Shown: positions 35,471-58,352 of the stretch, one piece after another
Layout of the letters: each line of letters starts with the position of its first letter
Numbering within the stretch: position 1 is the stretch's first letter
Program-made: the position numbers and the translations under genes
The notes under the pieces: model-generated
Told to the model about the DNA's origin: nothing
The model's input: only the letters and a program-made list of their open reading frames with translations
Database searches by the model: none
Assembly: GCF_044704955.1 (NCBI RefSeq)
Contig: NC_091982.1
Span: 54,312,001 to 54,376,000 of the forward strand
Length of the DNA stretch: 64,000 nt
Source of the DNA: Pristiophorus japonicus
Lineage: Eukaryota
Reading direction: 5' to 3'

Positions 35471-37225
35471 AGTAAGTAACTAAGTGTTATGTTCAGAATA
35501 AATCCACAGGACTATGTCGCAAGCTCAAACTGTTGTGACCTTGGTCTCTTTAATTCAGACTCTCGAGTGAGGAAGCAGTATGGTGAATCATCTTTTATAA
35601 CTGCTTGCCCCAGAGTGCACAACTGACCCTCAGGTATCCCACAGGTGTGCACCCTGGTGGCAAGTCTTACATTTGGCTAAGGTCTATATACATAAATAAC
35701 ATCACTCCCCCACACCCCCCCAAAATCTTATTGTGCAAGTTATTTGCAAGTTGAGGCGATCAGGTGCCCCGCGTCCCTGGATCGATCTCCTGGGTTGAAG
35801 TCTTGACATGGTGGGTTCGTCCTTGTGGTTGACGGCAAAGTTGATTGTGTTGGTGAGTCGCTGGGGGCCAGGTCCCAACAGTGTGGTTCCTCGTCGCACT
35901 GCTTTACTCATTAGCCCGCTACATGGTTTCACAATCAAACACTCCATTTTCATCACATGCACTCCATTCCCCCCTTTGGCTAATGCGGTATTAGCGGCCC
36001 GACTGCAGCCCTGAACATGGTCTATATCACTTATTCTGATGTCGCATGGAGGGGCCGTGCACTTATGGTGCATTCTCTGCTGATGGTATGCGGAAGGCTC
36101 GGTTCTGAGTGATTCAGTCTGGTGATTGCGTAACACCCAGGATAGCCGGGTCTGTATGTAGTCTACCGTGGCACGCATGGTGCTAGGTTTAGTGATTTAG
36201 GCGCTGACCCTGAGGTCTGGCAAGCCCAGGATGGCTGCAATGGCCTTGAGACTTTCGGTAGTGCTGGGAGACCTAGTGGTCCCCGTGGACATTGGGCCGG
36301 AGTATGGGGGCCCCGGACAACCGATAGCTTGTAGCCCCCCTGCCTTGCTTTGCAATGTTGGGTGGGTCTATCGTCTTTTTGGCGGAGAGCTTGCCACATC
36401 CCGTCTAGCAGTTCACCTTTGCCAGGCGGTAACATGGGATCCTGGCTGGTCCAGGTCCTAAGTTGGGGGGCTGTTACGGTTGGCCCCTCACTTTCTAGCA
36501 CTTCCATGACCACGAGTGGGTCTGCAGGCTGCGCCGTTTCCACCCCGGGGGTGGGCAACGCTGGCCAACTGACAGCATGGGTGCCGCTCGCTGTGCCTGG
36601 CCCGTGACGGATCATGTTACAGTGCACAGACATTGTTGGACATTCTCGAAACAACGCATTGATAATGGAGCCTCTGCTCTCCCAAGCTCGTGGGATGAGC
36701 AACTTGTCTGACTCCAGCGCATATTGGGACACTCTTTGATACTTCTCTTTAGTCCCGTGAACACAGGCTGCTGCTCTGTTTAACTTATTTGATACATGTT
36801 CAATTGTTTGGTACTCGCCTGCTACTGTTGCTTGCTGCATAACACTCCCGACGCAGTGCTGTAACATCTCACTGGCTACGAATGCTTTGTTAGATACATG
36901 TATAACTGGTTGGGGTTCACCCACTACTTTGGCTTGCTGTAAAACACATCCAACCCCGTATGATAACACATCACTTGTTACAAGTACTTTGTCAGATGCA
37001 TATACGACCGATTGGTGTTCGCCCGCAACTTTGGTTTGTTACCCCAACCCCATACAATGGTACATCCTTGGCTGCGAAAGACCGTTCGCACGGGTTACAT
37101 GGTGCACACAATTAATTTGATTGTGGTGGGTTCCTGGCCTTCACCGCAGCCGCCCCTTTACCTTTGCACCAAACCCAGTCATCTTCCTTGCTGGGTGAAA
37201 CATTCCTCCATTCCGTTGCGGCGAC

Positions 37226-37403
37226 CTTCTGTGGTCTGGATGCTCTCTTGTCCCGTGGTCTGGATGCTCTCTCGTTCCGTGGTCTGTACACACTTTCGTC
37301 CCATGGTTTGAACGCACCTTCATCCCGTGGTCTGAACGCACCTTCGTCCCGTGGTCTGGACAACTTCTCATCCCGTGGTCTGGATGCGCTCTCGTCCGTG
37401 TCC
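37226..37403 (-). repeat. 24-nt tandem repeat, ~7 units (SRPRDE.A)
   Basis: cgtggtctggatgctctctcgtcc-like units. Confidence 0.85.
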
Positions 37404-37501
37404 ATGATGCCGACTGCCGTGATCTTCCTCTCCAGGTATTTTGCCTCTGGCGTCGGGAAGACGCATTCGGATCGTTTTGGTCAGAGTCCCACTCCGCGTG
37501 G

Positions 37502-38958: not shown

Positions 38959-39601
38959 TACCGCGTGAAAGTTCGTGATCCGTTACTCGTCGCCAATTTG
39001 TTATGTTCAGAATAAATCCACAGGACTGTTGCAAGCTCAAACTGTTGTGACCTTGGTCTCTTTATTTCAGACTCTAGAGTGAGGAAGCAGCATGGTGAAT
39101 CACCTTTTATACTTGCTTGCCCCAGGGTGCACAGATGATCCTTAGGTCTCCCACAGGTGTGCCCCCTGGTGGAAAGTCTTACATTTGGGTAAGGTCTACA
39201 TACATACATAACAGAAAGAAAGAAAGAAAGAAAGAAGGACTTGCATTTATATTAGCCAGGACACCGGGGATAACTCCCCTGCACTTCTTCAAAATCGTGC
39301 CATGGGATCTTTTACATCCACCTGAGAGAGCAGAGGGTACCTTGGCTTAACATTTCAGTTGTGGTGGGATTTGAACTCAGGTTTCTAGATTATTAGTCCC
39401 GGCCTCTGGAATTCTAATCCAGTAACATAACCACTATGCTACAGTACCCCCATCACTTACTCCTGTTCCTATGTTGTAAATTGTGCGAGGTCAACAAAGT
39501 TTAACGCTTTACACAAGAAATATTAATCATATTCGGTTAATGTCAGCACAATTAATCAAACCAAGAGTTCTTTACACAGATTCAATATGGTAAAATAGCA
39601 T

Positions 39602-44742: not shown

Positions 44743-45555
44743 GAGACATGGTTGCAAGTTGACCAGGGTTGGGAACTATATATTCCAGGGTACTTTTTGT
44801 ATCAAAAAGACAGGCAGACTGGAACTGGAGTGGGATAGCCCTGATAATAAGGATGATGTATGGACAGTAGTGGGAAAGGATCTTGGCTCAGAAGATCAGA
44901 AAATAGAATCAGTATGGGTGTGGATAAGAAATAACAAGGGGCAGAAAACAATGTTGGGAATAGTTTATAAGCCCCCTAACCATTATACCACTGGACAGAG
45001 TATTAATCAAGAAATAATAGGAGCTTGCAACAAAGGTAATACAATAATTGTGGGGGACTTTAAACTGCATATAGATTGGGCAAATCAAATTGGCAAGGGT
45101 AATCTGGAGGACGAGTTCATGGAATGCATTCGGGACAGTTTCCGAGAACAATACGTCAAGGAACCAACTAGGGAACAGGCAATTTTAGATCTTGTATTGT
45201 GTAATGAGACAGGGTTAATTAGTAATCTTATACCACAGGATCCTCTCAGGAAGAGTGATCATAATATGATAGAATTTCACACTGAGTTTGAAATTGACAT
45301 TCTTAAATCTGACACTAGAGTCTTAAACTTAAACAGTGATAAAGATGTGTGTATGAGGGATGAGTTGTATGAGGGACAATGACATGTGTATGAGAGACGA
45401 GTTGGCTAAGGTAGATTGGGAACTTAGATTAAAAGGTATGACAGTAGATTTACACATGGTAATCATTTAAAGAAATATTCCAAAATTCACAACAAATATA
45501 CATTTCATTGAGAAATTAAAAACTCCATGGGAAAAGTGATCCATCCATGGCTAAC

Positions 45556-46270
45556 TGTTGAAGAGCATTACCATAGAGCAAAGGTACCTGTGGCATAATG
45601 TTAGAATTAAATATGTGTGTAATGTTAGAATTAAATATGTGTGTATAAAATGGTGGCAGGAGAGGTATGAAGATGGCTGCCAGTGATTCAGCAAAGCACC
45701 AAGGGAATGCAGCTAGCAGAAGGGACCACATTCCTAGATACTGATAATTGCCGTTTCTCACACAACAATGCACAGAAAAAACGAGCTCAGCAGATGTCTC
45801 TAAGCAGCAGGCTTCCAGGCCCCAGACAAGATGTCCCAGTTGAATGATAGAACAATAGTACTCCTGTAACAGGATTAAGATAAAGCAACTACCCAAAGAC
45901 AGCACTCAAGGACAGTAAGATAAGTGAAGGTGGGGGGCCTGGACAATGTCACAAGACCATGAGTAACCCTTAGCAACACATGAGGAATCACGCAGCCACC
46001 TAATGTTTAGAGACCAATTCTATTGGTCTAATTGAATCTATATGTAATCTATAATCAATATGATTGGATAGTGTCCAGCCGAAATGGGCTGATGTAACTA
46101 TAGTGAACTGTTGTAAAACATATAAAAATCCATGAAATCCTTTGTTCAGTGGAGAGAGGTGCCTGGATGAACCAGTGGCTTCATCTCCCCGCCGGCGTAA
46201 TAAACTGTTTTGGTGTATGGAACCGACCCAGAGTGACGAGTGATTCTTGGAGGGAACATTCGCGCTAACA
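45556..46270 (+). promoter_or_regulatory. ERV 5' LTR
   Basis: TGTT...AACA ends, 24-bp tandem repeat at 45596-45645, TATAAAA near 46121, AATAAA near 46199. Confidence 0.9.
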
Positions 46271-46272
46271 AA

Positions 46273-46290
46273 TGGCATAGTCGGCAGGAT
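46273..46290 (+). promoter_or_regulatory. Primer-binding site, tRNA-Ser
   Basis: TGGCATAGTCGGCAGGAT, one mismatch to the complement of the tRNA-Ser 3' end; candidate splice donor G|GTGAGT at 46328. Confidence 0.85.
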
Positions 46291-46832
46291 ATTGTGGAGG
46301 CCGTTGGGACATCCCTGGAGAATCCGGGTGAGTATAAGTCCGAGTTAAAAAAAACATAGCGGGGTGCTGGAGGTGAACGCACAGGTTGATCGACACGGAT
46401 GGATGGTCCAGTATCTCACACATCTAGCCTGAGCCTGAATTAAGAGGACTTAATCCCACATGATGGCCAGGATCAAGTCGGTGTAAAGAACCCCCCTGAG
46501 ACCATAGGATCGTGAGACCGAGCAACACCTCCCAGACCCAATAAGGGAATTGGCAGTAGATCCCGGGGGGTAAGGGACCAGGTGGTGTCCAGAGGCCGAC
46601 GCATTATCCAATCTGTGAGAAGGGTCGGACCAACAGGCAAAACTGTGGTAGGTAGTCGTTAAGGAGGCGTAGGGCACTGCGGGAATTGCTTAAATGCGTT
46701 TTAAGAATTGTATAAGTTTGTGTAATAGCAGACTTGTGACCTGACAGTAGCGAGAGACGGTCTACAACAAGTCACGCTGGGTAAAAGCGGACCTCTGAGA
46801 GTAAGATTCCTAACGAGCTAATCATACCCAAT

Positions 46833-48264
46833 ATGGCCAATGTAACAACAGAACTCAAGTGGGGGCCCGAAGGGTCCCTTACTTGCCACCTGGAGGAGAA
46901 ACAGACAAAGATGATAAATTGAATGATTGCATCAGGTTGGAAACCCCACGACTCGCCGGAAGAACAGCGAGAGTGGTGGAAACAGGAAAGGAAAGATAAA
47001 GACAAAAAAGCCTTGGTCCTGATCCTCTGGGCCCATGTAATACTGACAGGAAAAGTAAACCAATATATAAAAAACAAAAGGGAGCAGGTGAAGGTCATGT
47101 CCGGGTGAACTGTCTTGCCAACCCGAACAAAGGGCGCAGACGCACCACCTAGTGAGGAGGACATTGATTGGGGACTCCCAGACGAGGGGATGAATGGGTA
47201 TGATTGGGGCGAAGGAGATGCCCTGCCCCCTCCATAGGCCCTGACGTACCCAGCCAAAGCAGCCCCGATAAAACTAGAATATATACCAGGGATCCCAGTG
47301 CGACGCCCCGGGAAAGGAGGACCGGGACGAGCCGCTCGATCCCCGCAAGTAAAAATGACATACATCTCCCAATCTCCCGGGGATACAATGCAGCTGCTAG
47401 ACAAATTACTCGTCCTGCTACCCCGAAGTAGCAATGCAGTTTTCTGGCAAAATATTAAGGAAATGCGCATTTTCCACCAACTACACAGCCGGGACATAGC
47501 GGGATCAGTTAGAACCAAGATGCCCGAAAACTACTGGGCATGCTACCCGCAGCTTATAGGGACGGGATTTGGTGTGAGGACCTGTCCACTGACCAGCAAC
47601 AGTAGGAAACAGACATGGCAGCATTTAAAATAGAAGTTACAACAGCTTTAGGGCATGTCCCCGTGAATTGGAATTCGATAGTAGGAGTAACCCAAAAGGA
47701 AGGCGAAGGAGCACAGGAATATGGAACTAGGAAATTTGAAGCCTTCTTAGCACATAGTGGAGTACCAAATGTAGATAGGCAGAACCCGGCTTTCATACAG
47801 CTGTATAAAGACGGGTTAAGCCCTGCACACCAAATCATACTGAAAACAGGGCGAGTAGCATTTAATAATTCTGACGATCTGGAAAACTGGGCCACTGCGG
47901 TGGATAATCAGCAGAAATCTAATGTTGCAGCCAACACTACAGAAACCTATGTAGCAGCTGCCACAAAGGCACCGGAGGTGTGTTTTAATTGCAAAAAAAC
48001 GGGACACCTCTTGCGGAGTGCCGTGTAGAATATAAAGCCCCAAAGTGGGAGACTCACAAAAAGTGTCAGAACTGTAGTAAAATGGGACATAAGATGAAGG
48101 ATTGTTGGGCAGAGGGAGGCGGACGGGAGGGACAGGGACCCTACCCGGTACGAAGAAAGAAACAGGTATCTGATGAGAAAACGGTAGACGCAAGTAAACT
48201 GGGGAGCCAGCAGCTGTTGGACATTATACGGCAGCTAACCCGGCAACAGACACGGCCCCAATGA
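46833..48264 (+). pseudogene. gag: ERV gag with stops and frameshifts
   Basis: MANVTTELKW start, capsid-like VNWNSIVGVTQKEGE...FLAHSG, two CCHC knuckles (CFNCKKTGH, CQNCSKMGHKMKDC). Confidence 0.8.
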
Positions 48265-50990
48265 CTCGCATCAGCCCCCGGCCAGGGGCTCGACCCTCGT
48301 ATGTGGGTCAACGCATCGTTAGGGAGCCGGCGGTGCGACATGTTAATTGATACGGGTGCATCGGTGTCCCTGACCAACCTTGACCTGCCCACAACCCGAC
48401 GATCAATTATTGTACAGGGAGTGGGAGGAAACCAAACCGTTGCATATCAGAGTGAATACCAATTACTGGAAGTAGGTGGCATTATGTTACCAGTACAGTT
48501 CTGGGTATGTCCAAACACGGAGGGTACCATATTACGGATAGATTTGTTGAATGAGTTAGGCACGATAGTAGACGCCCGAAATAGACAAGTAATTTGGATG
48601 GCGAGAAAGGGACATAAAGACAAAATTACCGGAAAATGGGTCCCAGTGAAGAATGTAGCCACCGTAGGTAGTGCGGCTAAGTCAACCAGGGACTGGACTA
48701 AAGATGGGATGTTAGGATCAATATGTCAAACTCTGCCTGATATCTGGGCGAAAGACAAACAGGACTGCGGACTTATTAATATATTACCAGAAAAGATCAA
48801 AGGGCCAACTCACCCTCCCCACAAGCAGTACCCGATTAAACCTGAAGCCATATGGGCCACTGAGATAATCATAAGAGACCTGGTAGAACAAGGTATATTA
48901 AGACAAACAGTATCGGTCACAAACTCCCCAATATGGCCGGTGAAAAAGCCCGATGATAGCTACCGATTAACCATAGACTATACTGCCCTGAATAAAGTGA
49001 CCCCCAAAGTACACCCAATCGTAGCCAGTCCGGCCACGATCTTTAACAGCCTGAGTCCGGAACACAAGGTCTTTACCGTCCTGGACATTGCTAATGGATT
49101 CTGGTCGATCCCATTGGATCTCGAGTCCCAGGAAAAGTTCGCTTTCACTTCCCAGGGCAAGCAGTATACGTGGACTCGACTCCCTCAAGGGTTCCACAAC
49201 AGCCCAAACATTTTCCATCGAGTCATGAGCGGGGCCCTGAAAGAATGCGATCTAACACCGTACAACAGTACGATCCTACAAACGTGGATGACATTCTCAT
49301 AGCCTCGTCAAATGACCAAGAGCATCTGGGCGTCCTAACAGCGGTATTGAGAATGTTAGAGAAGGCAGGATTTAAGATAAATCCGAGGAAAGCACAAATT
49401 GGACAGACTAGAGTACGATACTTGGGACACGACATTAGTCAAGGAACCAAGACTCTCCTGACAGATCGGAAAATGGCGATTGCCGACATGCCTCGACCCA
49501 CCACGATGCGGGGCGTACGGCGTGTGATGGGGCTGTTCAACTACTGTAGGAGTTTCATTTCCCAGTTCGCAACAATCGCAGAACCTATTCAGCATCTAGT
49601 CAAGGGTGGAAAACCCGGAAAGATCAGGTAGGTGGGGAGTGGAACAGGGAGAAGCCTATGAACAGTTAAAAGCTGGGCTGCTGTTAGCCCCTGCTCTAAA
49701 GTTACCAGACATTTCCAAATCATTCCACGCGTATTACAACCTGGAAGGGGGCTTTTACAACGCTGTAGTGACCCAAGAAAAGGGGGGGTGCAATGAGACC
49801 TGTAGCGTATTACTCCACACATGAGTCCCCGGTAGTAAAGGGACTCCATCGATGCGTAGCGGCCCTCGATTTTGCAGCCTGGGCTGCAAGAATATGTGAG
49901 CCTGTGACAATGTCCGGACAGTTGGTTATACACACTAAGCATACTATACTGGAATTGCTGAACACTGGAAGGTTAAAAACGGTGTCAGATGCCCGACGGA
50001 CTATGTGGGAAGCGGTATTGGTACCCAAAGATCAGCCAGTACAAATAAGGGATGTAGGGTTTAACCCAGCCGAAGGAATGGTGACTGAAGGCGAGCCCCA
50101 CCAATGTCAGATAGAGATAGATCAGGGAGTGGAGGGAGAAATAGCCGATGAACCCCTGACCAACCCCGACCTGACCCTTTACGTCGACGGATCCCGTCGG
50201 TACATCAACGGGCAGTTTCGGACTGGATGGGCCGTGGTAGACCAAGATGGGACCACACTCCTGCTGGGAGGGTTGGAAGGGACAGTATCGGCTCAGGTAG
50301 CCGAACTGGTGGCGCTAACAGAAGCCCTGAAACTAGCAGAGGGAAAGCGCGTGAACATCTTCACGGATAGTCGATACGCGTTTGGGGTGGTTCACGACTA
50401 TATGACAGCTTGGAATAGACGGGGATATATAACATCGGGAGGGAGACATATTAAACACGAGAATGTAGTCCGAGAACTAGTAAAAGCCGTCAAGTATCCT
50501 CTCACAGCGGCTGTAATAAAAATTAAGGCTCACCAGAAGATCGAAAGCAAAGAGCAACGGGGAAACATGTTAGCAGACCAAGCAGCCCGAAGCGCTGCGG
50601 AAGAGGCTGAGCCTCAGACTATCCCAGTAGCCACGATAGGGCCAGAGGAACTAAATATTCAGAAGATACAGGAAAAAAGGGGGCGGTAAAGGGGGGAGAC
50701 GCTGTATGGAGAAAGGGAAGACAGGTAGTGGCCCCATCATCTATCCAGGCCGAGCTACTTAAATTACACCATGAACCGGACCATGCCGGGAGGGATGGGA
50801 CATTAAGTCGTTTAACGAAGGACTGGTGGTGGGCGGGAATAGGACGAGATATAGCGAAGCATTGCCAGCGATGCCTAATATGCGGGCAACATAACCCCGG
50901 AAAACCTATAAAGGCTAAATTGGGACATCAGCCGCGTCCTAAAGGACCGTGGGAAAACTTACAGATTGATTTCACCGAACTGTTGCCCAA
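48265..50990 (+). pseudogene. pol: ERV pol: PR-RT-tether-RNase H-integrase N-terminus, frameshifted
   Basis: LIDTGA, NSPIWPVKK, LPQGFHNSP, frameshifted (Y)VDD, RPVAYYS, YVDGS / SAQVAEL / TDSRY, HHCC and QIDFT. Confidence 0.92.
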
Positions 50991-51737
50991 CATAAGAACA
51001 TAAGAACATAATAATTAGGAACAGGAGTAGGCCATCTAGCCCCTCGAGCCTGCTCCGCCATTCAACAAGATCATGGCTGATCTGGCCGTGGACTCAGCTT
51101 CACTTACCTGCCCGCTCCCTGTAGCCCTTAATTCCCTTATTGGTTAAAAATCTATCTATCTGTGATTTGAATACATTCAATGAGCTAGCCTCAGCTGCTT
51201 CCTTGGGCAGAGAATTCCACAAATTCACAACCTTCTGGAAGAAGAAATTCCTTCTCAACTCTGTTTTAAATTGGCTCCCCCGTATTTTGAGGCTGTGCCC
51301 CCTAGTTCTAGTCTCCCCGACCATTGGAAACAACCTCTCTGCCTCTATCTTGTCTATCCCTTTCATTATTTTAAATGTTTCTATAAGATCACCCCTCATC
51401 CTTCTGAACTCCAACGAGTAAAGACCCAGTCTACTCAATCTATCATCATAAGGTAACCCCTCATCTCCAGAATCAGTCTAGTGAATCGTCTCTGTACCCC
51501 CTGCCAAACCTTAGCCCATTCGCTTAACCTATCTAAATCTCTTTGAAGCCTCTCTGTGTCCTCTACACAACCCGCTTTCCCACTAATCTTTGTGTCATCT
51601 GCAAATTTTGTTACACTACACTCTGTCCCCTCTTCCAGGTCATCTATGTATATTGTAAACAGTTGTGGTCCCAGCACCGATCCCTGTGGCACACCATTAA
51701 CCATCGATTTCCAACCCGAAAAGGACCATTTATCCCG
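50989..51737 (-). mobile_element. CR1 3' part, inverted copy with an internal deletion
   Basis: Tail aacataagaacataagaacataat; [10 protein letters not shown] and KFADD. Confidence 0.9.
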
Positions 51738-51762
51738 AATCACCAAACAATATTTCTTCCCC

Positions 51763-52713
51763 CTGCAGATAACACAAAGATTAGTGGGAAAGCAGGTTGT
51801 GTAGAGGACACAGAGAGGCTGCAAAGAGATTTAGATAGGTTAAGCGAATGGGCTAAGGTTTGGAAGATGGAATACAATGTCGGAAAGTGTGAGGTCATCC
51901 ACCTTGGGAAAATAAACAGTAAAAGGGAATATTATTTGAATGGGGAGAAATTACAACATGCTGCGGTGCAGAGGGACCTGAGGGTCCTTGTGCATGAATC
52001 CCAAAAAGTTAGTTTGCAGGTGCAGCAGGTAATCAGGAAGGCGAATGGAATGTTGGCCTTCATTGCGAGAGGGATGGAGTACCAAAGCAGGGAGGTCCTG
52101 CTGCAACTGTATAGCTGTATAGCATATTGGTGAGGCCGAACCTGGAGTACTGCGTGCAGTTTTGATCACCTTATTTAAGGAAGGATATACTAGCTTTGGA
52201 GAGGGTACAGAGACGATTCACTAGGCTGATTCCGAAGATGAGGGGTTACCTTATGATGATAGATTGAGTAGACTGGGTCTTTACTCGTTGGAGTTCAGAA
52301 GGATGAGGGGTGATCTTATAGAAACATTTAAAATAATGAAAGGGATAGACAAGATAGAGGCAGAGAGGTTGTTTCCAATGGTCGGGGAGACTAGAACTAG
52401 GGGGCACAGCCTCAAAATACGGGGGAGCCAATTTAAAACCGAGTTGAGAAGGAATTTCTTCTCCCAGAGAGTTGTGAATCTGTGGAATTCTCTGCCCAAG
52501 GAAGCAGCTGAGGCTAGCTCATTGAATGTATTCAAATTACAGGTAGATAGATTTTTAACCAATAAGGGAATTAAGGGCTACGGGGAGTGGGCAGGTAAGT
52601 GGAGCTGAGTCCACGGCCAGATCAGCCATGATCTTGTTGAATGGCGGAGCAGGCTCGAGGGGCTAGACGGCCTACTCCTGTTCCTAATTATTATGTTTGT
52701 ATGTTCTTATGTT
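51763..52713 (+). mobile_element. CR1 3' part
   Basis: RT C-terminus and tail ending gttcttatgtt. Confidence 0.9.
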
Positions 52714-55713
52714 GGGCAACGGTTCGGTGAAATCAATCTGTAAGTTTTCCCACGGTCCTTTAGGACGCGGCTGATGTCCCAATTTAGCCTTTATAGGTTT
52801 TCCGGGGTTATGTTGCCCGCATATTAGGCATCGCTGGCAATGCTTCGCTATATCTCGTCCTATTCCCGCCCACCACCAGTCCTTCGTTAAACGACTTAAT
52901 GTCCCATCCCTCCCGGCATGGTCCGGTTCATGGTGTAATTTAAGTAGCTCGGCCTGGATAGATGATGGGGCCACTACCTGTCTTCCCTTTCTCCATACAG
53001 CGTCTCCCCCCTTTACCGCCCCCTTTTTTCCCCACTCGGACTGTTCTTCCAGGCTACTTTCCTCCTGTATCTTCTGAATATTTAGTTCCTCTGGCCCTAT
53101 CGTGGCTACTGGGATAGTCTGAGGCTCAGCCTCTTCCGCAGCGCTTCGGGCTGCTTGGTCTGCTAACATGTTTCCCCGTTGCTCTTTGCTTTCGATCTTC
53201 TGGTGAGCCTTAATTTTTATTACAGCCGCTGTGAGAGGATACTTGACGGCTTTTACTAGTTCTCGGACTATATTCTCGTGTTTAATATGTCTCCCTCCCG
53301 ATGTTATATATCCCCGTCTATTCCAAGCTGTCATATAGTCGTGAACCACCCCAAACGCGTATCGACTATCCGTGAAGATGTTCACGCGCTTTCCCTCTGC
53401 TAGTTTCAGGGCTTCTGTTAGCGCCACCAGTTCGGCTACCTGAGCCGATACTGTCCCTTCCAACCCTCCCAGCAGGAGTGTGGTCCCATCTTGGTCTACC
53501 ACGGCCCATCCAGTCCGAAACTGCCCGTTGATGTACCGACGGGATCCGTCGACGTAAAGGGTCAGGTCGGGGTTAGTCAGGGGTTCATCGGCTATTTCTC
53601 CCTCCACTCCCTGATCTATCTCTATCTGACATTGGTGGGGCTCGCCTTCAGTCACCATTCCTTCGGCTGGGTTAAACCCTACATCCCTTATTATCTGTAC
53701 TGGCTGATCTTTGGGTACCAATACCACTTCCCACATAGTCCGTCAGGCATCTGACACCGTTTTTAACCTTCCAGTGTTCAGCAATTCCAGTATAGTATGC
53801 TTAGTGTGTATAACCAACTGTCCGGACATTGTCACAGGCTCACATATTCTTGCAGCCCAGGCTGCAAAATCGAGGGCCGCTACGCATCGATGGAATCCCT
53901 TTACTACCGGGGACTCATGTGTGGAGTAATACGCTACAGGTCTCATTGCACCCCCCGTTTCTTGGGTCACTACAGCGTTGTAAAAGCCCCCTTCCAGGTT
54001 GTAATACGCGTGGAATGATTTGGAAATGTCTGGTAACTTTAGAGCAGGGGCTAACAGCAGCCCAGCTTTTAACTGTTCATAGGCTTCTCCCTGTTCCACT
54101 CCCCACTCTACCTGATCTTTCCGGGTTTTCCACCCTTGACTAGATGCTGAATAGGTTCTGCGATTGTTGCGAACTGGGAAATGAAACTCCTACAGTAGTT
54201 GAACAGCCCCATCACACGCCGTACGCCCCGCATCGTGGTGGGTCGAGGCATGTCGGCAATCGCCATTTTCCGATCTGTCAGGAGAGTCTTGGTTCCTTGA
54301 CTAATGTCGTGTCCCAAGTATCGTACTCTAGTCTGTCCAATTTGTGCTTTCCTCGGATTTATCTTAAATCCTGCCTTCTCTAACATTCTCAATACCGCTG
54401 TTAGGACGCCCAGATGCTCTTGGTCATTTGACGAGGCTATGAGAATGTCATCCACGTTTGTAGGATCGTACTGTTGTACGGTGTTAGATCGCATTCTTTC
54501 AGGGCCCCGCTCATGACTCGATGGAAAATGTTTGGGCTGTTGTGGAACCCTTGAGGGAGTCGAGTCCACGTATACTGCTTGCCCTGGGAAGTGAAAGCGA
54601 ACTTTTCCTGGGACTCGAGATCCAATGGGATCGACCAGAATCCATTAGCAATGTCCAGGACGGTAAAGACCTTGTGTTCCGGACTCAGGCTGTTAAAGAT
54701 CGTGGCCGGACTGGCTACGATTGGGTGTTCTTTGGGGGTCACTTTATTCAGGGCAGTATAGTCTATGGTTAATCGGTAGCTATCATCGGGCTTTTTCACC
54801 GGCCATATTGGGGAGTTTGTGACCGATACTGTTTGTCTTAATATACCTTGTTCTACCAGGTCTCTTATGATTATCTCAGTGGCCCATATGGCTTCAGGTT
54901 TAATCGGGTACTGCTTGTGGGGAGGGTGAGTTGGCCCTTTGATCTTTTCTGGTAATATATTAATAAGTCCGCAGTCCTGTTTGTCTTTCGCCCAGATATC
55001 AGGCAGAGTTTGACATATTGATCCTAACATCCCATCTTTAGTCCAGTCCCTGGTTGACTTAGCCGCACTACCTACGGTGGCTACATTCTTCACTGGGACC
55101 CATTTTCCGGTAATTTTGTCTTTATGTCCCTTTCTCGCCATCCAAATTACTTGTCTATTTCGGGCGTCTACTATCGTGCCTAACTCATTCAACAAATCTA
55201 TCCGTAATATGGTACCCTCCGTGTTTGGACATACCCAGAACTGTACTGGTAACATAATGCCACCTACTTCCAGTAATTGGTATTCACTCTGATATGCAAC
55301 GGTTTGGTTTCCTCCCACTCCCTGTACAATAATTGATCGTCGGGTTGTGGGCAGGTCAAGGTTGGTCAGGGACACCGATGCACCCGTATCAATTAACATG
55401 TCGCACCGCCGGCTCCCTAACGATGCGTTGACCCACATACGAGGGTCGAGCCCCTGGCCGGGGGCTGATGCGAGTCATTGGGGCCGCGTCTGTTGCCGGG
55501 TTAGCTGCCGTATAATGTCCAACAGCTGCTGGCTCCCCAGTTTACTTGCGTCTATCGTTTTCTCATCAGATACCTGTTTCTTTCTTCGTACCGGGTAGGG
55601 TCCCTGTCCCTCCCGTCCGCCTCCCTCTGCCCAACAATCCTTCATCTTATGTCCCATTTTACTACAGTTCTGACACTTTTTGTGAGTCTCCCACTTTGGG
55701 GCTTTATATTCTA
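52712..55713 (-). pseudogene. pol: Inverted duplicate of the ERV gag end and pol (mirror of 48026-50990)
   Basis: ORFs 54437-55438, 54108-54569 and 52684-53736 are near-identical to the plus-strand copies. Confidence 0.95.
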
Positions 55714-55764
55714 TAGAGATGGCCTACTCCTGTTCCTAATTATTATGTTCTTATTTTCTTATGT
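55714..55764 (+). mobile_element. Third copy of the CR1 tail
   Basis: gatggcctactcctgttcctaattattatgttcttat, followed directly by ERV integrase C-terminal sequence. Confidence 0.8.
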
Positions 55765-55960
55765 CGAGAGCCAAGACCAGGGCACGACCGAACCTCGCCT
55801 GCCACAGGTAGGGGATAAAGTCCTGGTACAAGTCACCACTGAACACACGGGATTTGCCCCAAGATGGAGCCTTATGACATAATCTTAACTAGTGACACAT
55901 GAGCATGTATTGATATGAAAGGGAAGGGCCGGTGGAAGCACTGGTCCCAGTTGAAGAGAT
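55765..55960 (+). pseudogene. ERV integrase C-terminal remnant
   Basis: LPQVGDKVLVQV...FAPRW (GPY/F-type region); catalytic core deleted. Confidence 0.65.
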
Positions 55961-55972
55961 ATAACTAAAACC

Positions 55973-56164
55973 ATGTCGGACCCCGAAATTGTGCCCCTCA
56001 GGGAGACTGCCTGGTACGTGGCTAGATACCAGGAGTGGCAAAATGCATTAAAGAATGGAATGTTTGCAGGCATAATGGTGGCCCTAATATTGGTAGGAGT
56101 ATGGACGGTATTTAGATGGGTTACCGGGCAAGCCCGAGTTCGACCTGCATTAGTCCAGGACTGA
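55973..56164 (+). CDS. 63-aa single-pass membrane protein, putative retroviral accessory ORF
   Basis: aaaaccATG context; hydrophobic GMFAGIMVALILVGVWTVF followed by basic residues; lies between IN and env. Confidence 0.55.
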   Translation: MSDPEIVPLRETAWYVARYQEWQNALKNGMFAGIMVALILVGVWTVFRWVTGQARVRPALVQD

Positions 56165-56339
56165 TGACCATATAGACAAGGACAGGTAGTGATTGAGATG
56201 GTACGGCTATGAAAAGTATGGATAACCTAATCTTCACCTCTAATTTTACAGAACTACTTCGGCGCGAGCAAATCAGTACCTAACACTTGGTGATGACCAG
56301 GCAATCTGTTTGAAGTTTTCAGATAAACCACCCACCAAG

Positions 56340-57364
56340 ATGGGATCGCAGTGGCCACTTTACCTCTGCAGCATGACACTAGGGATCTCGACACTCATAC
56401 AAGCGTCAGATAACTCGGATGGTCTATGAAGGATGCAGCAAACGCAGGAAAGACACACTTACCCGAACTATGGGATCTTGTTTAATTTAACTGACGAGAT
56501 ATGCATCCCAGCAGCCAAAGACTGGAGCAAGGACAGAACTTATTTTAATGCTTGGCTGCAGGTACACTCGAGCAAGGATACAGTATGCGTACACTGCTCC
56601 ACTGATACCAGGGTCAACTGTATCAGAAGAGAGGAGGCTCGGGGATCCGCTAAGTGTACTTTCGGGATAATTTGCGCGCCCACTGTTAAGCCCCAACCGG
56701 CGGGCACGTACAGAAAGGGGGTGGGGGTAGGTGGCTATTATGAGGTGGTAGGAGCAGCCGCTGTATCTTTGTACGTATGTTTTTCACCACCTCCGACATC
56801 GCGTTCCATAGCGACCTTCACCTCGCCCGAAATCTTACCATGCCCCTCAACCACAATGGGACCGCAGAACAGGATTGTATTACTTAACGAAGGTGAACTA
56901 TTATATGATAATGTTAAGCATGAAATTGTGCTGGTTCTGATCAATATCTCAGGTGTACAAATGCCGGAATATTGTACAGAACAGGCAAGGAAGACGTATA
57001 GTGTATTAAGTAAGGTTGTAATGCAGCAGGCTGCTGATGCCGTGGGCGTCAGTAGGTTCCGAGGACAAGGGCAGGTGCATAGGAATAAGATTGAGATACT
57101 GGAGAAAGACACCGACACAGAGCTGCAGGATGAAAGTTGGTGGAGGAGGGTTTGGAACTGGGGCTGAATGTCAACATCCACCTCTGGATTCGAATTATAT
57201 CACATACACTGGTCGGAATACAGTTAGTCCTAGCATTAACATGGGGTGTCATGGCTTGCCGGTCCTGCAGACATTATGTGCAACAACGGAGGTTTAGCAC
57301 CAAAGCTCAGATAAGCAAGGAAGACTGTGTGACAGGCGATTCGAACAATATCAATTTGATCTAA
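56340..57364 (+). pseudogene. env: ERV env, internally deleted
   Basis: Acceptor ctaattttacag at 56251; signal peptide MGSQWPLYLCSMTLGISTLIQA in frame with 56433-57167 across one TGA; Cys-rich region, RNK site, WW..W, then a TM segment after a frameshift. Confidence 0.7.
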
Positions 57365-57506: not shown

Positions 57507-58328
57507 TGTTGAAGAGTGTTTCCATAGAGCAAAGGCACCTTTGGCATAATGTTAGAATTAAATATGTGTGTAATGTTAGAATTAAATATGTCTGTATAAA
57601 ATGCTGGCAGGATATGTATGAAGATGGCTGCCAGTGATTCAGCAAAGCACCATGGGAGTGCAGCTAGCAGAAGGGACCACATTCCTAGCTACTGATAATT
57701 GCCGTTTCTCACACAGGAATACACAGAAAAGACGAGCTCAGCAGATGTCTCTAATCAACAGGCTTCCAGGCCCCATAGAAGATGTCCCGGTCAAATGATA
57801 GAACAATGCGATTCCTGTAACAGGAGTAAGATATGGAAACTACCCAAAGAGAGCACCCAAGAACAGTAAGATAAGGGGAGGCCTGGACAATGTCACAAGA
57901 CCATGAGTAACCCTTAGCAACACATGAGGCGATCACGCAGCCACCTAATGTTTAGATACCAATTGTATTGGTTTAATTGAATCTATATGTAATCTATAAT
58001 CAATATGATTGGATAGTGTCCAGCCGAAATGGGCTGATGTAACTGTAGTGAACTGTTGTAAAACATATAAAAATCCATGAAATCCTTTGTTCAGTGGAGA
58101 GAGGTGCCTTGATGAACCAGTGGCTTCATCTCCCCCCAGGCGTAATAAACTGTTTTGGTGTATGGAACCGACCCAGAGTGACGAGTGATTCTTGGAGGGA
58201 ACATACACCAAAATGGTTTATTACGCCGGCGGGGAGATGAAGCCACTGGTTCATCCAGGCACCTCTCTCCGCTGACCAAAAGGATTTCATGGATTTTTAT
58301 ATGTTTTACAACAACATTCGCGCTGACA
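57507..58328 (+). promoter_or_regulatory. ERV 3' LTR with a 112-bp internal inverted duplication
   Basis: Matches the 5' LTR; 58202-58313 mirrors 58054-58163. Confidence 0.9.
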
Positions 58329-58352
58329 CTAATTAAAAAATTTAATAATAAT

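Follow-up and report, generated by a model that had tools for sequence, protein, structure and literature searches.

The small open reading frame (ORF) between pol and env of a damaged shark provirus belongs, with a probability of about 0.93, to a real viral accessory gene. The original prediction had proposed such an accessory gene; it occupies a fixed place between the two genes in three provirus families, reads in a separate frame and is under purifying selection. Its product, of 66-79 residues, is predicted to cross the membrane once. In the window (the whole 64-kb stretch of DNA analysed here), the copy is truncated and subject to neutral decay, so that its openness at this locus does not have the meaning first given to it.

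A truncated ORF in a broken provirus

The features of the provirus are as follows.

45556..46270, + strand: 5' LTR
46273..46290, + strand: primer-binding site, presumably of the tRNA-Ser type
46328, + strand: second conserved donor-like site
46640..46655, + strand: leader splice donor with its GT at 46648-46649, in agreement with the joints observed
46833..48264, + strand: gag, frameshifted
48265..50975, + strand: pol, broken, with PR, RT, tether, RNase H and the start of IN; related to SnRV in the RT tree
50976..55765, no strand assigned: LINE fragments and inverted gag-pol duplication interrupting the provirus
55766..55968, + strand: integrase C-terminal remnant; pol stop TAA at 55966-55968, in another frame than the ORF and 4 nt before its ATG
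55790..55807, + strand: candidate acceptor for splicing to the small ORF, with a pyrimidine fraction of 0.66 and an AG that all three families share
55973..56164, + strand: small membrane-protein ORF of 63 codons as found here, cut short by a stop at codon 64
56057..56113, + strand: predicted transmembrane helix, residues 29-47, with a G29-x3-G33-x3-A37 small-residue stripe
56165..56212, + strand: remnant of the 3' end of the family ORF behind the premature stop; other copies continue to codon 79
56232..56251, + strand: env splice acceptor 1, AG at 56250-56251 conserved in three families
56286..56301, + strand: conserved 6-bp hairpin between the two env acceptors, kept in all families
56305..56322, + strand: env splice acceptor 2, 17 nt before the env ATG; GT..AG joint in one contig aligned to a copy of the young family
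56340..57364, + strand: env, broken; family env of about 707 aa with a furin site and no CX6CC, probably F-like
57507..58328, + strand: 3' LTR behind a polypurine tract; identity with the 5' LTR 92.8% across 705 columns

The claim that gag, pol and env are all broken in this copy was correct. The damage consists of frameshifts, a LINE insert, an inverted duplication (48026-51507/52195-55713) and loss of the integrase core, and env carries a stop at 56427-56429, a deletion of about 1.1 kb near 57071-57098 and a frameshift near 57167. The family gag has two CCHC knuckles and a terminal stop in frame with pol. A tRNA gene for the primer-binding site was sought and none was found.

Several other features were noted in the window. 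The inverted duplication within 48026-55713 is 3.5 kb long, 98-100% identical, and spans gag-pol together with the inserted LINE; it is either an assembly artefact or much more recent than the divergence of the LTRs. A possible 5-bp target-site duplication with one mismatch flanks the element (45551-45555 and 58329-58333), and an inverted piece of about 110 nt lies inside the 3' LTR at about 58202-58313. Elsewhere, a 24-nt tandem repeat is present in seven copies (37207-37421), and a tRNA-Ser-like sequence called by ARAGORN at 39356-39448 on the minus strand recurs in the window and is likely a SINE head.

Most of what had been said about the ORF itself was reproduced: it starts at ATG 55973 with an A at -3, runs for 63 codons and ends with a stop whose last base is 56164. 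The best 19-residue window covers residues 29-47 with a mean Kyte-Doolittle value of 2.29, in agreement with the hydrophobic helix of about 19 residues that had been described, and the 15 residues behind it hold three K/R and no D/E, as expected of the basic C-terminal flank. The description of the ORF as intact and undisrupted does not hold, because the family frame has 79 codons and this copy ends early, at a stop in codon 64. The conserved C-terminal motif is consequently missing from its product. One other copy, L006, likewise stops at codon 64.

The ORF in three provirus families

Copies of the window family were collected by a DNA search of the genome (best 40 of 2071 candidates scored), and the 29 best other copies, with a mean pairwise distance of 8.9%, were compared. 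All 79 codons were open in 13 of these 29 copies and the first 63 in 18. Windows of equal length in pol and env were open in 11-21 of 28-29 of the same copies (six windows); a seventh control window, in pol (0/28 open), was excluded, its count being an artefact of a length that differs from that of the reference. The ORF thus decays like pol and env after insertion and gives no sign of host use. We conclude that copies decay neutrally once inserted and that this locus is not singled out for host use. A gene co-opted by the host at this locus would fit 63 codons standing open within a wrecked provirus; however, the ORF is truncated and the 18 sister copies are equally open across these codons, and co-option is scarcely credible.

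None of 1000 mononucleotide shuffles of 55770-56339 yielded a comparable ORF, although on both strands of the 64-kb window three ORFs in the 50-120 aa range contain a stretch that is just as hydrophobic. The original prediction had allowed for survival by chance because of the short length. Survival is no better than that of the pol and env windows in the same copies; the ORF as such exceeds what the shuffles give.

More distant families were sought with a protein search (best 150 of 2456 candidates scored), and 20 of these loci were fetched. Three provirus families in this genome have the ORF at one position and encode proteins that are about 45-85% identical, with lengths of 79 codons in the window family, 79 in the intermediate family and 66 in the young family. 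The young family accounts for 83 of the 150 scored matches (a hand count of a score-selected set), at 45-51% identity and with no stop inside the match. A 39-nt in-frame indel distinguishes the families and lies ahead of a common E-M-[VI]-[RQ]-L end. The ORF is open in many copies of all three families, and it has its own frame and stop, with no in-frame fusion to integrase or env in any copy examined. Neither of the two observations named in advance as refuting the prediction was therefore made. In three young-family copies (L061, L063 and L064) the LTR pairs are 98-100% identical, indicating that this lineage spread very recently. In addition, one contig end in sequencing run X1 links the young-family 3' end back to the LTR start.

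Purifying selection in the frame of the ORF

Pairwise pN/pS of the ORF between families, from 18, 5 and 6 natural copies per family (out of 60 loci), was 0.38 (0.27-0.53), 0.33 (0.22-0.50) and 0.41 (0.29-0.58), with bootstrap upper bounds below 0.6, for copies that share ancestry, are not independent and were partly chosen for an open ORF. The values for frames +1 and +2 across the ORF were 0.92-1.46. The alignment across family copies that had been suggested as a check therefore detected purifying selection in the ORF's own frame only. For comparison, pN/pS was 0.17-0.20 for integrase and 0.28-0.32 for env, to which the ORF is similar. Constraint was present both in the N-terminal part and in the transmembrane segment with the tail.

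That the ORF might not be a gene, but a chance hydrophobic frame or a region conserved for its RNA signals, had to be weighed against these values. The ORF is short, no homologue was found outside this genome, and no transcript joint into it was seen in the contigs of three runs. Moreover, the short non-coding stretch that separates the ORF from env gave a pN/pS of 0.39-0.47 when translated in the env frame, which we infer to be due to the two acceptors and the hairpin; RNA signals can therefore mimic coding. In contrast, the third-position excess across the whole ORF (0.36/0.25/0.58), synonymous sites that vary as much as those of pol, the in-frame nature of the indel, the conservation of both start and end, and the shuffling result all speak against this explanation. 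It is already largely refuted, and we regard it as highly improbable.

Expression of the ORF

Splicing was examined in the contigs of three sequencing runs of unrecorded kind from one study. Two leader-to-env joints were found, each in one contig: one at acceptor 56322/56323 and one, in the contig of a relative, at the 56251 region. The prediction of an env acceptor at 56251, downstream of the ORF, was thus borne out, its AG being conserved in three families. The donor had been placed at 46328, whereas in the observed joints it matches 46647/46648. A search for joints into an acceptor upstream of 55973 had been suggested as a check, and no joint into the pol 3' end was present in the contigs of the three runs. 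Among possible acceptors upstream of the ORF, the best conserved ends at 55807, but it is also under integrase-codon constraint, and several upstream ATGs follow it.

Pol ends close to the start of the ORF. The pol stop precedes the ORF ATG by 4 nt in the window family and by 7-8 nt in the intermediate family, and in the young family stop and start overlap as TAATG in 7 of 8 copies scored; one copy overlaps by 32 nt. Stop-start reinitiation geometry of this kind is known in influenza B BM2 and in caliciviruses (available text of PMC3542737). The UGGGA motif of a TURBS, expected 40-90 nt upstream, was present within 100 nt in 0 of 29 copies. The pol 3' end showed no synonymous-site dip marking a cis element, except in its last five codons. 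On balance, we lean towards expression from a minor spliced mRNA made with the candidate acceptor 55807/55808, while reinitiation at the stop-start site after pol is possible but not probable.

The predicted protein

An AlphaFold model of the product consists of a single helix over residues 9-64, with a pLDDT of 90-95 over residues 21-50. Nine residues (M1, W14, Y15, Y19, G29, F31, G33, L38 and W49) are invariant in 21/21 aligned copies, and the tail is the least conserved part except for its last five residues. A conserved Trp/Tyr helix precedes the hydrophobic one. G29, G33, A37 and W44 lie on one face of the helix (0-80 degrees), and no conserved polar residue (His, Ser, Thr or other) was found inside it. 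By the positive-inside rule, a basic flank lies on the cytoplasmic side. In 4/4 proteins scored, the N side has a net negative charge and the C flank is basic, and from this charge bias an N-terminus outside and a C-terminus in the cytoplasm are predicted.

Searches for relatives of the ORF product gave no match in Pfam, no homologue in a word search of a 5.8-billion-protein set restricted to near lengths, and no match in a BFVD fold search. Its profile reached a best E of 0.57 against 56 viral and sister loci. A profile search of 1.84 billion representatives returned a single match (P0018), which was rejected as a W/C/V-rich tandem repeat.

Env and the virus lineage

The ORF is not the env leader, as had been argued, since env has its own ATG at 56340, followed by a signal-like N-terminus. 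The family env, a 707-aa protein in a young copy (L064:6742-8862), has a furin site, long helices and a Cys-rich part, and lacks CX6CC. It had no sequence match in Pfam or PDB. Its relatives comprised eight shark proteins from four species, and none were found in the metagenome and viral collections searched; a search of the same collections with pol gave one distant gypsy-like record.

The Atlas neighbours of a stored env homologue were the Fusion_gly, Baculo_F and Gypsy families, with recognition below the mark. A Foldseek search with the env model (pLDDT 31) ranked RSV F, hMPV F and foamy Env at the top, with a best E of 0.006. When the env profile was compared with 71 long ORFs of 26 viral records, the best score was a weak 3.8 bits, against -0.1 for the best of 500 shuffles; it came from the env of a 12,708-nt record, which from its length we take to be WDSV. 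The ranks are consistent, and with a low-confidence model and sub-threshold Atlas recognition this env is probably F-protein-like.

In the RT tree the provirus is split from the gamma/epsilon (class I) viruses with a support of 100/99. It groups with frog, coelacanth and teleost elements and, at a support of 92/88 (under the starred mark), with a 10,688-nt viral record that corresponds to SnRV in its length and in the 205-aa 3'ORF motifs quoted in the available part of PMC12193657. As judged from RT, the provirus is SnRV-related and lies on the class III side. Two other assignments were rejected. Membership in the class I (gamma/epsilon) ERVs was considered because the best PDB match of the RT is MLV, but the RT tree overrides this match and env has no CX6CC. 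A lokiretrovirus was discarded by RT motif, the shark sequence being TRLPQGFHNSP as compared with TRCPFGY(A/S)NSP in Loki. The shark lineage, apparently undescribed, combines an SnRV-related pol with an env that is probably like pneumovirus F or foamy Env and whose relatives were found only in sharks.

Association of the ORF with this env

In 30 loci of sister pol lineages of the same genome, no match to the ORF or to this env was found. In most of the 28 sister loci with an integrase-end match, an unrelated env-like ORF begins 110-220 nt past pol, and the pol tree places the split between these sister lineages and the ORF-bearing clade. The sister lineages have other envs and no ORF, so that ORF and env go together: in the shark lineages examined, all from one genome, the ORF occurs only beside this env type. 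Directly after pol, the sister lineages (L151-L180) carry at least two other, unrelated env types, and env swapping has thus occurred within one RT clade.

A high-copy derivative without gag and pol (L081-L116), in which 1-2 kb of non-coding DNA replaces these genes, retains env and, of the ORF, just the 3' half; a complete ORF is thus dispensable in cis. The half-ORF has about 50 codons and starts at a Met just before the helix, a start seen in 24 of 30 env-selected loci. Its pN/pS, 0.53 (0.23-1.16) in 22 copies, is not distinguishable from neutral, and that of the derivative env is 0.63. The derivative exists in two recombinant versions with a common junction.

Possible functions

We tentatively favour an Env-associated membrane adaptor or helper of the probably F-like Env. 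The G29/G33/A37/W44 face would pack on another membrane helix, most likely that of Env itself or of a second copy of the protein, and the invariant Trp/Tyr helix may sit against the Env stalk or on the outer face of the membrane. The terminal E-M-[VI]-[RQ]-L, which is retained despite the 13-codon in-frame indel, could be a sorting or PDZ-type signal and would then steer the complex via the secretory pathway to budding sites. However, the co-occurrence of ORF and env rests on one genome and could reflect linkage after a single recombination.

The original prediction compared the protein with Vpu and SH, and here the position before env was upheld, whereas no sequence or fold match, polar pore residue or phosphoserine degron was found, so that the likeness is one of analogy. 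Vpu has a very short ectodomain and a transmembrane face of the form AxxxAxxxAxxxW. A Vpu-like antagonist would bind a host restriction factor or an entry receptor through the small-residue face of its helix, and its tail would route the bound protein to removal, as Vpu removes tetherin and CD4 via its transmembrane domain (PMC4488738, in part). The size of 66-79 aa, the predicted N-out topology, the position and the small-residue stripe ending in Trp would suit such a protein. We nevertheless consider it doubtful: the tail has neither a conserved serine pair nor an acidic degron, Pfam and profile searches found no sequence similarity, and the 28-residue N-terminal part is as constrained as the transmembrane segment, unlike the short ectodomain of Vpu.

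A class IA viroporin of the SH, M2 or BM2 kind is unlikely; such a protein would form a homo-oligomeric channel for ions or protons and would shield a pH-sensitive F-like Env or assist release. The single helix with a glycine-zipper-like GxxxGxxxA and the F-like neighbour, itself a weak assignment, are consistent with a channel, and the TAATG in 7 of 8 young copies reproduces the influenza B BM2 geometry given in part of PMC3542737. Yet the helix holds no conserved polar residue, whereas a His is essential in SH and M2 (PMC4488738, in part), UGGGA was absent in 29/29 copies, and BFVD gave no match.

The foamy virus leader peptide LP has an orientation opposite to that predicted here. Another candidate is a split-off Env leader, an analogue of foamy LP or arenavirus SSP, which would formerly have belonged to the Env precursor and would connect Env with Gag. 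The RT lies on the foamy/SnRV side of the tree, the N-terminal part has conserved tryptophans, and foamy Env, which shares the F core, retains LP as its N-terminal membrane subunit (PMC11468914, in part). No similarity to LP was found, however, and the charge bias, the own ATG and signal-like N-terminus of env and the lack of an in-frame fusion in the copies examined all count against this origin, which we judge very improbable. A bolder proposal, also decidedly unlikely, is that the small gene and the F-like env form one SH-plus-F-type cassette, acquired as one piece instead of a conventional env, in which the small protein is an obligate partner or channel of the fusogen and is made by reinitiation after Gag-Pol. 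If true, it would add a new expression route and a new accessory-protein class to the retroviruses outside lentiviruses.

Comparison with known systems

The best-known small accessory proteins with a single membrane pass are those of primate lentiviruses (Vpu) and of RNA viruses (SH, M2). No description of the ORF was found in the part of the literature searched, and an earlier mention is possible. The available portions of 10.1101/2021.11.23.469661, 10.1101/2023.10.26.564294, PMC9040795, PMC12690878 and PMC4977317 held no match to it.

Among retroviruses, SnRV resembles the shark element in its RT grouping (92/88), in a gag stop in frame with pol and in a complex genome, and its env TM subunit is weakly similar (hhalign E 0.035, probability 1.5%). 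In contrast, SnRV env follows pol within 17 nt, with no small membrane ORF between them, its accessory ORFs (52, 94, 76 and 205 aa) show no similarity to the shark ORF, and RT identity is about 38-41%. Teleost foamy-like ERVs (DrFV-2 ORF-1, AcERV ORF-1/2, acc3/acc4) also carry accessory ORFs under purifying selection between pol and env, with dN/dS of 0.13-0.19, but these encode 334-465 aa, and no membrane helix is reported for them in the available text of PMC5210030 and PMC5512871. Furthermore, the Gag of these foamy-like elements (FLERV) lacks CCHC knuckles, whereas shark Gag has two. Lokiretroviruses are likewise vertebrate retroelements and have an RxKR site and an F-like env, the latter only probable in the shark element, and they differ in the RT motif and in an smc gene that the shark element does not have; in the accessible part of PMC7947760, Loki is not marked in the four shark genomes listed.

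Like HIV-1 Vpu, the shark product is a small single-pass protein encoded just before env, with a predicted N-out topology and a small-residue helix face. It differs in belonging to an unrelated virus class, in giving no sequence, profile or fold match, and in having a longer conserved N-terminal part and a short tail without the phosphoserine degron, which in Vpu is the cytoplasmic pair Ser52/Ser56 (PMC4488738, in part). In addition, both shark env acceptors lie downstream of the ORF, and an mRNA shared with env is not indicated. With pneumovirus SH and influenza B BM2 it shares a length within 60-110 aa, one helix, a probably F-like neighbour and, in one family, the TAATG; it lacks a pore histidine, TURBS and detectable homology. 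Because the neighbouring env looks, if weakly, F-like, the pneumovirus comparison gains indirect weight.

Both pol-env ORFs under selection and small membrane accessory proteins are thus of a known kind, and what is apparently new is such a protein in a shark class III lineage. Natural sequences for tests exist, since the lineage has young copies whose LTRs are identical and env relatives occur in four shark species. A selected small membrane protein in a shark class III retrovirus shows that the same design has emerged once more in a very remote lineage, and its link to an env that is probably F-like bears on how retroviruses gained or swapped fusogens related to paramyxovirus and pneumovirus F.
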